The position numbers and the translations under genes were made by a program. Shown one piece after another: positions 57,394 through 58,972 of a stretch of DNA of 64,000 nucleotides (positions are counted from its first letter, which is position 1; each line of letters begins with the position of its first letter). Source of the stretch: Escherichia coli (GTDB lineage: Bacteria; Pseudomonadota; Gammaproteobacteria; Enterobacterales; Enterobacteriaceae); the NCBI RefSeq assembly GCF_050920415.1, contig NZ_CP169309.1. One strand, given 5' to 3'. The notes beneath the pieces are model-generated. The model was not told the origin of the DNA. It saw only the letters and a program-made list of their open reading frames with translations, and ran no database searches.

Positions 57394-58506
57394 TGAGATA
57401 ATTTCCTGATGAACGAATTAACGAACATAGGCAGACACAAATAATGGCGTCTGCTTGTCAGAAAAACCGGGATTTCCCGGTTTCCTTTTCCGCAGAAAAG
57501 GAAATACCTTTATGTAAGAAAGTACACCGCCACCTAATATATCCAGTGCCTGTAGCCACTCATCAGGTGGTTGGGCGCGGGATTATATTTTTATTTATGG
57601 GTGAGAATTTAGCTTTTTGTGCAAACCATTAAATAGATACCTAAGTTATCTTTCTTACTCTGCGGATAGTGAATAATTCATTATTCAGAGTGAATAATAA
57701 TGACCTGCTTTTAATTTACCACGATTGGAAATACGTCGAAGTAGGTATATACGCCAGGATAAACCAATGTATTTTTTATGGATATTCATTTTTCTTCATC
57801 GGACTGTAAATTCCGGGGATATCGAACTTGCACGACTAATCTCAACCCTCAAACAGATTTATGAATTTTGTTCATAACCCCTGACAAATCCTGCCGTCTA
57901 ATCGAGCTTTTCCCTTTACGTTATGCTTCTCATGAACGATAACACAACTTGTTCCTGAATTAACCATTCCGGATAAACTATGGGATCAAATTCAGGCATC
58001 GAAAGGAACTGGCTGGTTTCCGTTAATGGATTAAATATCTATTACTCTCCCGAGAGTAAAACTATCAAACCAATGAGTAACCGATACAGCCTCGCAAATT
58101 CTTTCAGATAATTAACCCGTCACTGCGGCACGTTCTCTCATAAGGCGTGCCTGCTGTGTAATCCAGTATGTATCCGGCATACTTGACGGTTTAATAGAAC
58201 TCAATTCCTTTCCCAGGTTACCAACAACGATATCTTGTATAACATCCCAGGAGATACGACATTATGATGAGATGAGGTATGCTCCTCAGCGCCAATCAAC
58301 GCCAGGGCTGGGCCAGTTTTGAGATCAGACTCATTCCCGGACTGACTTCAGGCGACATATATCAATGACGTTGGGGCAATAAAAGATAGCCGATGTAATA
58401 CATCTATTCAAATTTGTGATACATGTCAAAAAATTGGTTGACCAAACTCGTTATTTATATAAGGGCACTTACGAAGTGCACTCTTTTTTAAAGCGAGGAA
58501 GTACCA

Positions 58507-58608
58507 ATGAAAGAGAATAAAGTACAGCAAATCAGTCATAAACTGATTAATATCGTTGTTTTTGTCGCAATTGTAGAATACGCCTATTTATTTCTCCATT
58601 TCTATTAA
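58507..58608 (+). CDS. ykgR: 33-codon small hydrophobic protein (YkgR-like)
   Basis: ATG preceded by GAGGAAG Shine-Dalgarno; encodes MKENKVQQISHKLINIVVFVAIVEYAYLFLHFY with a C-terminal transmembrane-like segment. Identity with K-12 YkgR is from memory. Confidence 0.5.
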   Translation: MKENKVQQISHKLINIVVFVAIVEYAYLFLHFY

Positions 58609-58945
58609 TAACGGCAATAAACTGTTCACTTCAGTGATATTTAAAATATGCATCCTCTCCCTTTTTTTTAAGTAATTATTATATCCGTGGGAGAGGAATA
58701 CACGCTGTCAGGTAATCAATCAAACTGCGATAAATCATCGGCCAGTAAAGTGGAGATAGCCTCCATTCTCGAAAAATTCATACTCTCAGCGAAACCATCA
58801 TCAATCACTCATCCAGGCGTTTATGGGAGCGTCGCCAATGGCTGCTAACAATGCCAGACTTCCCCGTTGCCGAAATTCCACATACCACAAATGGTCACAG
58901 GGATTGGGTGTTGAAATGATCCGGATGAGCATGTATCTTTACGGT

Positions 58946-58962
58946 TATGTTATAACATAACA
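58946..58962. promoter_or_regulatory. Zur box upstream of ykgM (rpmE2)
   Basis: TATGTTATAACATAACA containing the perfect 12-bp palindrome ATGTTATAACAT, about 15 bp upstream of the rpmE2 start; ykgM-ykgO is a known Zur-repressed operon. Confidence 0.7.
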
Positions 58963-58972
58963 GGTAAAAATG

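Follow-up and report, generated by a model that had tools for sequence, protein, structure and literature searches.

Small membrane proteins of fewer than 50 residues with one hydrophobic helix, such as YohP, AzuC, YshB and YncL, are among the described proteins that resemble YkgR of Escherichia coli; they have no sequence relationship to YkgR, which was found here only in Escherichia. Several small single-pass membrane proteins are substrates of RseP and have been described as induced by stress or in the stationary phase. Chromosomally tagged YkgR was reportedly first detected in the work of Hemm from 2008 and 2010, and its membrane localisation is said to have been tested by Fontaine in 2011. 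According to two reports (PMC7549839, PMC12648545), YkgR is too short for co-translational targeting, so that SRP binds it after its release from the ribosome and passes it to SecYEG or YidC; the cross-link to SRP forms irrespective of puromycin, and YkgR does not insert spontaneously into liposomes. YohP shares this post-translational SRP targeting. The site-2 protease RseP then turns YkgR over, cleaving it in vivo, with chromosomal rseP, and in vitro (PMC10470546), and the peptide has been described as stationary-phase induced (PMC10502375). In these four papers, neither a partner nor a phenotype is given for YkgR. Hok, DinQ and DqlB are also short hydrophobic membrane peptides, of unrelated sequence.

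The analysis of the window, a stretch of 64,000 nucleotides of E. coli DNA, centred on the gap between the divergent genes fdeC and ykgM. The ykgR gene in this gap is identical to that of K-12 (b4671) and occupies the same place, between ykgP and ykgM-ykgO; the surroundings differ, as fdeC is intact here, whereas the same gene in K-12 (eaeH) is interrupted by IS3. The gap extends from 57394 to 58972 (1,579 bp) and has a G+C content of 39.3%, compared with 50.1% in the whole window and 52.4% in fdeC, in agreement with the original prediction of an AT-rich gap of about 1.6 kb between divergent genes. Its treatment as a single intergenic region was not upheld: RefSeq annotates two features within it, ykgR and the pseudogene ykgP, and it splits into five pieces. 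We conclude with high confidence that the interval is pieced together from known E. coli features: ykgR, a deletion scar and the ykgMO promoter with its Zur operator. The boundaries and pieces are as follows.

53140–57393, minus strand: fdeC, an intact inverse-autotransporter adhesin gene (1417 aa); left boundary.
57394–57943: old divergent promoter region; it separated fdeC from the first aldo/keto-reductase gene, which is deleted here.
57943–57944: junction of a 6,327-bp deletion.
57945–58034, plus strand: ykgP pseudogene, the last 29 codons and stop of a flavin oxidoreductase, in frame.
58035–58378: spacer, single-copy, unannotated and fast-evolving.
58379–58701: conserved ykgR module.
58702–58972: ykgMO promoter piece, including the Zur operator.
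58973–59376, plus strand: ykgM-ykgO (type B L31 and L36), from the RefSeq annotation; right boundary.

The name fdeC was taken from the annotation of MFDS1022581, a genome with 99.9% identity. The start of ykgM is at 58973 in RefSeq, and the mechanical list of open reading frames (ORFs) begins the gene at an in-frame ATG at 58970; the NCBIfam matches for ykgM-ykgO were NF002462 (121.8 bits) and NF002021 (90.9 bits).

A BLAST comparison with strain CB209 gave two blocks abutting at 57943 with a 1-nt microhomology, and the segment 57394–57943 is collinear with the 565-bp spacer between fdeC and the aldo/keto-reductase gene of that strain. The genes removed are two aldo/keto reductases, two LysR regulators, an alpha/beta hydrolase and most of an NADH-dependent flavin oxidoreductase. 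K-12 and O111 carry the identical junction. The oxidoreductase, of the Oxidored_FMN family, is intact in CB209, ST131-type and O157 strains, whereas here only its 3' end is left, which K-12 lists as b4630 and RefSeq as a partial CDS; the translation of this end, QLVPELTIPDKLWDQIQASKGTGWFPLMD, is the C-terminus of the intact 380-aa CB209 enzyme. A single 6,327-bp deletion joined the last 29 codons of the oxidoreductase to what had been the fdeC/aldo-keto-reductase promoter region. As ykgP is an in-frame gene end, the opposite polarity, in which the short form is ancestral and the cluster an insertion, is hard to reconcile with the data. The length of the gap is mostly historical, resulting from the old deletion of a six-gene oxidoreductase/regulator cluster. 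The 6.3-kb scar, which explains much of the gap length, was absent from the original prediction. The spacer that follows ykgP is present in 5,063 of 5,426 E. coli genomes, and only 10 records are at least 99% identical to it. It is absent from E. fergusonii, where the 3' end of the oxidoreductase adjoins the ykgR module.

The ykgR gene itself comprises two elements.

58495–58500, plus strand: Shine-Dalgarno sequence GAGGAA, separated by 6 nt from the ATG and unchanged in every species aligned.
58507–58608, plus strand: ykgR coding sequence, 33 codons and stop, identical to K-12 b4671 / WP_000662258.1.

The ORF is translated as MKENKVQQISHKLINIVVFVAIVEYAYLFLHFY, which is exactly the protein sequence of YKGR_ECOLI (UniProt), and its coding DNA is identical to that of K-12 at 102 of 102 positions. 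The NCBIfam equivalog NF041474 ('small membrane protein YkgR') was matched with 78.1 bits against a cut-off of 40 (E = 2.6e-22) over its full length, residues 1–33 aligning to profile positions 1–33 of 33. The Pfam-A profile search gave no match for YkgR with a library probably older than PF28062; PF28062:YkgR is present in the precomputed matches for the E. fergusonii and E. marmotae orthologues and for a 32-residue, adapter-truncated E. marmotae product. Residues 1–12 are polar and lysine-rich (K2, K5 and K12; mean Kyte-Doolittle −1.6), and residues 13–33 are hydrophobic (mean +1.9). The expected 33-codon ORF with a good Shine-Dalgarno sequence and a hydrophobic C-terminal segment was thus borne out, and the peptide described as YkgR-like is YkgR itself, residue for residue. 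The suggestion that such a gene is often missed by annotation does not apply: it is b4671 in K-12 and has its own NCBIfam model. A ranked sample, taken from 5,099 matching records of E. coli, contained 29 chromosomal rows, every one of which had ykgR annotated in RefSeq; so had 24 of the 25 rows of a second sample, the exception being a 33-nt partial match. The segment 58507–58608 is a real protein-coding gene, for an already catalogued small membrane protein.

The length of ykgR alone is at chance level, as 59 ORFs of at least 20 aa in the mechanical list overlap 56500–59800; the gene stands out from chance ORFs because of its family membership and its conservation. Chance ORFs of this size being common, the conserved element could be mainly a regulatory RNA or DNA in which the 33-codon frame is incidental, being untranslated or functionless. 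Consistent with such a reading, the 121 nt upstream are conserved as strongly as the ORF, structured elements lie on both sides of it, and in O157:H7 Z1812 a frameshift (T5 to T4) has turned ykgR into an annotated pseudogene, so that the gene can be lost. The pattern of substitution between species argues otherwise. In E. coli, E. fergusonii and E. marmotae the frame is intact between unchanged start and stop codons, and the Shine-Dalgarno sequence is invariant as well; in the two latter species the gene stands in different neighbourhoods. The substitutions are overwhelmingly in third positions: synonymous differences made up 6 of 7 in E. fergusonii, 6 of 9 in E. marmotae and 6 of 8 in a third comparison (P = 2.5e-4 to 2e-3 under random placement), giving dN/dS values of 0.029 for E. 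fergusonii and 0.090 for E. marmotae. The reading frame, whose conservation had been proposed as a check, is therefore kept across three Escherichia species. In E. marmotae three residues are changed, all of them within the polar N-terminal segment. Furthermore, expression of YkgR yields a product that SRP targets and RseP cleaves (PMC7549839, PMC10470546), and an NCBI-curated equivalog family exists. An incidental frame is, in our judgement, highly improbable, and we retain ykgR as a protein-coding gene.

The order (oxidoreductase cluster or ykgP)-ykgR-ykgM-ykgO is common to MFDS1022581, K-12, CB209 and E. marmotae; in E. fergusonii the upstream neighbours of ykgR are kept and ykgM is absent. 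Salmonella and Citrobacter loci with a homologous aldo/keto-reductase cassette showed no ykgR by tblastn or blastn. A HMMER search of 1.84 billion representatives, which covers predicted proteins only, returned nine YkgR matches. Two divergent-looking ones were rejected as artefacts, one of a Nextera adapter and the other of an indel-rich assembly. A degenerate-DNA scan of contigs passed over Escherichia genomes that carry the pattern, its sole matches being two very small contigs that are probably contaminated, and it says nothing about distribution. As far as could be seen, ykgR is restricted to Escherichia, the range being uncertain. Adapter or assembly artefacts thus account for several of the 'distant YkgR homologues' that large protein collections seem to contain.

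The size and hydrophobic helix of YkgR resemble those of the toxins of type I toxin-antitoxin modules (hok, ldr, ibs and dinQ type), and we considered whether ykgR might be such a toxin, paired with an antisense RNA. RseP cleaves HokB and HokE in the same assays as YkgR (PMC10470546), other strains carry the DinQ-like dqlB in the spacer between ykgR and ykgM, a few hundred bp away, and one promoter-like site in antisense orientation lies inside the ORF (58598–58570). Nevertheless, promoter-like sites in the region numbered four against 6.2 expected, which is below chance, and the hexamers of the antisense site are altered in E. fergusonii, as judged by eye. The ykgR module is single copy, neither a conserved antisense gene nor an Rfam family was found for it, and its 5' leader does not have the long folded structure typical of type I toxin mRNAs. 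In addition, plasmid-expressed YkgR accumulates detectably upon arabinose induction, and the retrieved part of that report makes no mention of toxicity (PMC7549839). A toxin function is accordingly very unlikely.

Conserved elements were also noted on both sides of the ykgR coding sequence.

58386–58506, plus strand: conserved block upstream of ykgR, 121 nt, probable promoter and leader.
58415–58430, plus strand: candidate CRP-like site TGTGA-N6-TCAAA, followed by TTGACC at 58438–58443.
58465–58489, plus strand: terminator-like hairpin (GCACTT-ACG-AAGTGC, then T6) that stops 5 nt short of the Shine-Dalgarno sequence; from a terminator scan and folding.
58653–58697, plus strand: long-range stem, 45 nt beyond the stop codon of ykgR, that pairs UCCUCUCCC with GGGAGAGGA around an AU-rich loop.

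The upstream block is 96% identical in E. fergusonii and 88% identical in E. marmotae, and the sequence further upstream is unalignable. Within E. coli, block and gene together (58386–58608) are at least 99% identical in 3,752 of 5,077 records, compared with only 10, 7 and 3 records for neighbouring segments. This stretch of about 120 nt, equally conserved with the gene, presumably carries a promoter and leader of its own. The half-sites of the CRP-like element are invariant, and its spacer changes from TACATG to TACACC in E. marmotae; with three occurrences of the core pattern in the window and 1.86 expected, the ykgR-proximal site does not reach significance by itself. The leader hairpin has a 6-bp stem and a 3-nt loop (58465–58479), followed by ACTC and T6. 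It is kept in three species, and two A to G changes in E. marmotae pair as G.U, on the plus strand only. In an alternative fold of the leader, CUCUUUU pairs with the Shine-Dalgarno region GAGGAAG. These features could mean that the 121-nt block is a dedicated cis-regulatory leader, acting as a transcription attenuator or as a fourU-type translational switch, possibly with a CRP-dependent promoter; we put this forward tentatively and consider it unlikely on balance. No entry for ykgR was present in the supplements of studies of 3'-end mapping, Reg-Seq and ribosome profiling.

The stem downstream of the gene folds with −23.6 kcal/mol (z = −2.9). A compensatory change from C-G to U-A is present in E. 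fergusonii, and a G.U pair together with one mismatch in E. marmotae. Homology with E. fergusonii stops at 58701, and the stem marks the end of the common module.

The right-hand piece of the interval contains the control region of ykgMO.

58911–58939, plus strand: ykgMO promoter TTGAAA-17-TATCTT, from a promoter scan, conserved in E. marmotae.
58944–58962: Zur operator just 3' of the −10, formed by the overlapping palindromes GTTAT-N3-ATAAC (58944–58956) and TGTTAT-N3-ATAACA (58948–58962).

The same hexamers and spacing have been described as a constitutive RpoD promoter, flagged HNS (PMC3946193), and Zur represses L31p/ykgM 560-fold in vivo (PMC4219657). The arrangement here shows no difference from the known Zur-repressed ykgMO (L31B/L36B) promoter, having the same hexamers and the operator directly after the −10. 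The longer palindrome is unique in the 64 kb, lies 9 nt after the −10 and is conserved in E. marmotae; the shorter pattern has one other match in the window, at 50001. A 23-nt Zur consensus gave no matches at up to three mismatches. When zinc is plentiful, Zur would block access to the ykgMO promoter, which is of the sigma-70 type.

At the opposite end of the interval, the following features were identified upstream of fdeC.

57465–57505, minus strand: two adjacent hairpins, 70–110 nt upstream of the fdeC ATG.
57582–57587, minus strand: perfect TATAAT, candidate −10 of fdeC with a poor −35, read from the sequence and missed by the consensus scan because of the weak −35.
57859–57877, without strand: inverted repeat TTATGAA-N5-TTCATAA (T-N11-A, LysR-box-like), upstream of the deleted aldo/keto-reductase gene.

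Among eight aligned E. coli strains of different lineages, 57394–57650 is nearly invariant and the next 200 nt (57650–57860) are variable. The fold of the two hairpins has an energy of −22.1 kcal/mol, with z-scores of −3.9 for the minus and −3.4 for the plus strand; after the second hairpin, as read in the direction of fdeC, comes UUUUUCUG, a terminator-like arrangement. The minus-strand fold keeps approximately 11 pairs in the eight strains, whereas the plus-strand hairpin falls to four pairs in K-12-type alleles, so that pairing is better kept on the fdeC-sense strand. These hairpins, like the ykgR leader hairpin, are unannotated features. The fdeC leader at 57465–57505 is a possible attenuator or thermosensor. 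The title of a 2014 study by Easton reportedly places fdeC under temperature and H-NS control. Together with the conserved block, the hairpins and the perfect TATAAT upstream in the same sense, this would be consistent with an unannotated small RNA or cis-acting leader controlling fdeC, with 57394–57650 as the candidate. Against this, the block has no Rfam match, a series of A-tract, hairpin and U-tract is equally what ordinary bidirectional terminators or insulators look like, the conservation may simply reflect a promoter and sites for H-NS or other regulators, and E. coli strains vary too little here for covariation to be tested. We regard an RNA or leader of this kind as quite doubtful, and 57394–57943 is described here as the old divergent promoter region that the deletion left in place. 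The inverted repeat at its far end varies in one spacer base among the eight strains and is otherwise invariant, and 57856–57943 shares 85% identity with the sequence preceding the aldo/keto-reductase gene in E. marmotae; the repeat is a candidate orphaned operator.

At a permissive threshold, Rfam returned no family in the interval on searching 56800–59600. The only match at E ≤ 1, to GcvB (18 bits against 42), was a chance match outside the interval. The H-NS motif TCGATAAATT, at up to two mismatches, occurred 76 times in the window against 72 expected, with four occurrences in the interval, and is not enriched. The suggestion that the gap holds regulatory RNA or silencer elements was thus only weakly supported: Rfam gave no match, the H-NS motif occurs at chance frequency, and the known regulation (H-NS at fdeC, reportedly, and at ykgMO; Zur at ykgM) is already published. 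The other ORFs in the interval (57444–57632, 58687–58848 and 58823–58960) had no NCBIfam match. The first two were discounted, as they are disrupted by indels between strains, and so was an antisense ORF at 58426–58539, whose frame is lost through a 1-nt indel in E. fergusonii and E. marmotae.

YkgR is a 33-residue single-pass inner-membrane peptide with a 21-residue hydrophobic C-terminus, and the positive-inside rule makes an N-in/C-out topology most likely. By analogy with other small membrane proteins, it may bind and modulate a larger membrane protein in the stationary phase or under stress, a role that we propose with low confidence. Much of what the interval contains, namely ykgR, ykgP, the Zur-controlled ykgMO promoter and the H-NS control of the neighbourhood, is already on record. 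In K-12-like strains, what looks like a '1.6-kb intergenic region' is the scar of a deletion and should not be taken for one big regulatory region. Within this fast-diverging locus, ykgR and its leader of about 120 nt form a sharply conserved island, and the leader, if it is a dedicated regulatory element, would make the expression of ykgR condition-specific.

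The 33-codon open reading frame (ORF) between the divergent genes fdeC and ykgM, originally predicted to encode a YkgR-like membrane protein, is ykgR. Its coding DNA is 100% identical to K-12 b4671, its product matches UniProt YKGR_ECOLI exactly, and the full-length protein fits the NCBIfam equivalog NF041474 (78.1 bits; cut-off 40). The core interpretation was correct, and the gene is already known and annotated. The interval was present by megablast in 5,093 of 5,426 complete E. coli genomes, and RefSeq placed "ykgR: small membrane protein YkgR" under the match in 29 of 29 chromosomal rows of a ranked sample. 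The orthologues carry Pfam PF28062 "YkgR" in precomputed annotations; a Pfam profile search with the window protein returned no match, the library searched probably being an older release.

The interval (57394–58972) spans 1,579 bp at 39.3% G+C, compared with 52.4% in fdeC and 50.1% in the whole window. As 56500–59800 is overlapped by 59 ORFs of 20 codons or more, an ORF of 33 codons is by itself unremarkable. The Shine-Dalgarno sequence GAGGAA lies 6 nt 5' of the ATG, and the last 21 residues of YkgR are strongly hydrophobic. By these measurements, the description of an AT-rich gap of about 1.6 kb holding a well-initiated ORF with a hydrophobic C-terminus was accurate. Its treatment as one intergenic region was not, since the interval is composed of several pieces, including ykgP, the ykgR module and the ykgMO promoter.

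Features of the fdeC–ykgM interval and its borders (window positions)
53140–57393, minus strand: fdeC, an intact ORF of 1417 codons
57394–57943: collinear with the divergent 565-bp spacer that separates fdeC from an aldo/keto reductase (AKR) gene, for example in strains CB209, ST131 and O157
57465–57505: tandem hairpins, terminator-like in the fdeC sense
57943: deletion junction, 6,327 bp missing, 1 nt of microhomology
57945–58034: ykgP, equal to the final 29 codons of a gene for an NADH-dependent flavin oxidoreductase
58035–58378: single-copy, unannotated, fast-evolving spacer, absent from E. fergusonii
58379–58701: ykgR module, common to E. fergusonii
58386–58506: ykgR leader, with an identity of 96% to E. 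fergusonii and 88% to E. marmotae, unalignable further 5'
58507–58608, plus strand: ykgR, 33 codons, product MKENKVQQISHKLINIVVFVAIVEYAYLFLHFY
58653–58661 with 58689–58697: 9-bp long-range stem 3' of ykgR
58702–58972: segment leading into ykgM
58911–58939: ykgMO promoter, TTGAAA-17-TATCTT
58944–58962: Zur operator palindromes, directly 3' of the -10
58973: ykgM start in RefSeq (the mechanical ORF begins at an in-frame ATG, 58970); ykgO comes next

The reading frame was conserved beyond E. coli. It is intact in E. fergusonii, in which the upstream AKR genes are present and the neighbours fdeC and ykgM are not, and in E. marmotae, with the order AKR-AKR-LysR-SDR-DUF1471-ykgR-ykgM-ykgO. The start, stop and Shine-Dalgarno sequence are invariant across the three. 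Relative to the window, E. fergusonii showed six synonymous and one non-synonymous differences, and E. marmotae six and three, giving a dN/dS of 0.03–0.09 and a synonymous excess over random placement of P = 2.5e-4 to 2e-3. The E. marmotae replacements (V6I, Q8E and H11N) all fall in the polar N-terminus, leaving the hydrophobic segment unchanged. Within E. coli, 3,752 of 5,077 records match 58386–58608 at 99% identity or more; the flanks reached this level in 10 (58043–58378), seven (58609–58910) and three (57394–57943). Lack of frame conservation, one of the refuting conditions set at the outset, is therefore answered: the frame is conserved. Both the codon-position pattern and the biochemical literature contradict the idea that the ORF is purely non-coding.

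In O157:H7 Z1812, ykgR is a RefSeq pseudogene (L028 3066–3166, the counterpart of 58507–58608), frameshifted by a T5-to-T4 deletion at codons 17–19 that cuts the product to 22 residues; ISEc8 (IS66 family) lies approximately 240 bp 3' of it. The ykgR alignment of a second O157:H7 genome (ATCC 43888, H109) is also one base short. Given the Z1812 pseudogene, ykgR is not indispensable.

Searched exhaustively with HMMER, a set of 1.84 billion representative proteins yielded nine matches, all near-identical variants or artefacts. The seemingly divergent homologues were ruled out as adapter read-through or the product of an indel-rich assembly: three (P0017, P0021 and P0022) have C-termini that are the translated Nextera adapter CTGTCTCTTATACACATCT at contig ends (LSLIHI, CLLYTSDAADD... 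and VSYTHLTLP...; cf. L006 6079–6099), and P0024 derives from an E. coli assembly that is 86% identical, with 667 gaps, across 11.9 kb. The ykgR copies on tiny contigs assigned to "Sulfoacidibacillus thermotolerans" (403 nt) and "Alkalicoccobacillus porphyridii" (264 nt) are 100% identical to E. coli and are almost certainly E. coli contamination of these Firmicutes assemblies. No ykgR was found in Salmonella and Citrobacter loci carrying the homologous AKR cassette. Within the searches made, ykgR is confined to Escherichia; this range is provisional, since protein collections under-call small ORFs and a DNA pattern scan of genome contigs missed Escherichia genomes that fit the pattern. In the E. 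fergusonii loci (L010–L017), fdeC is absent and ykgR is followed by proA/proB or integrase-bearing prophages, not by ykgM-ykgO; it thus persists there as a stand-alone unit beside a prophage integration site.

Chromosomally tagged YkgR has reportedly been detected (Hemm, 2008 and 2010). Plasmid-expressed YkgR is detectable, its cross-link to SRP is ribosome-independent, and it does not insert spontaneously into liposomes (PMC7549839, PMC12648545). RseP, a site-2 protease, cleaves it as a class I substrate in vivo as well as in vitro (PMC10470546), and a review terms it stationary-phase induced (PMC10502375). These papers describe no physiological role or partner. That YkgR is a type I toxin is highly improbable: resemblance alone favours it, but no antisense partner was found and toxicity goes unmentioned in the literature consulted on the expressed protein. 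Tentatively, YkgR may be an N-in/C-out tail-anchored peptide, which might modulate a larger membrane protein under stress and might then be removed by RseP.

One study lists a suppressor of ydgH-deletion detergent sensitivity as a T to C change in the ykgM-ykgR intergenic region (K-12 BW25113 308,687; PMC11705850, Table 1). In E. marmotae, a YdgH/BhsA-like DUF1471 gene lies immediately 5' of ykgR; the tie may be coincidence.

Lost in the deletion at 57943 were two AKR genes, two genes for LysR regulators, one for an alpha/beta hydrolase and the greater part of the flavin oxidoreductase gene. K-12 and O111 share the identical junction, and the interval is unbroken, as in the window, in 2,811 of the 5,093 matching genomes; E. 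coli MFDS1022581 is near-identical to the window strain (99.9% over the interval). An inverted repeat, TTATGAA-N5-TTCATAA (T-N11-A, LysR-box-like; 57859–57877), is conserved in eight E. coli strains just 5' of the former start of the deleted AKR gene. Since the deletion took both LysR genes as well, the repeat is probably an orphaned operator. fdeC is full length in the window (1417 aa) versus the IS3-interrupted pseudogene eaeH in K-12.

On the ykgM side, a promoter with identical hexamers was described as constitutive and H-NS-flagged (Shimada et al., PMC3946193), and the ykgMO operon is repressed 560-fold by Zur (PMC4219657). Plasmid p2 of E. coli Br_112_kylling carries an IS26-flanked copy of the chromosomal ykgM-ykgO-ykgL-ecpR-ecpA segment, with homology to the window beginning at 58870. 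There, dqlB (L027 2281–2364), encoding a DinQ-like type I toxin (MMNLLIIVLRAVLAIANALIAIQKLIE), lies directly 5' of the ykgM promoter; the window has no trace of it. In other strains, the ykgR–ykgM spacer is thus a hotspot for insertions. 3' of ykgO, ykgL (~59411–59637, minus strand) carries an annotated frameshift in the nearest genome and in CB209 and is intact in K-12; a weak Rfam match to GcvB (59383–59516; 18 bits versus 42) covers part of the same stretch and looks fortuitous.

H-NS is said to control fdeC, going by the title of a 2014 report by Easton and colleagues. The suggestion that the rest of the region could hold regulatory RNA or silencers found little support: Rfam found nothing in the interval and a simple H-NS motif count was at chance level, but three structured, conserved, unannotated features emerged. 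The ykgR leader contains a TTGACC hexamer and a CRP-like TGTGA-N6-TCAAA, a match at chance level by itself, with half-sites invariant and the spacer varying in E. marmotae. Its hairpin (58465–58479) is followed by a T6 run ending 5 nt 5' of the Shine-Dalgarno sequence; E. marmotae substitutions retain it by forming G.U pairs, which works for the plus strand alone, and in an alternative fold the U-run pairs with the Shine-Dalgarno sequence. In the stem 3' of ykgR, a C-G pair is replaced by U-A in E. fergusonii, a compensatory change. The tandem hairpins upstream of fdeC lie within a 250-nt block that hardly varies among eight strains. In the first hairpin, the core (57469–57479) reads GGGGATTTCCC or GGGAAATCCCC by strain in the alignment; the two are reverse complements, a small inversion preserving the hairpin. 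An unannotated RNA or leader upstream of fdeC is unlikely, if less so than the toxin. Only two openings are left at this interval: how ykgR may be regulated by way of its conserved leader, and the hairpins upstream of fdeC.
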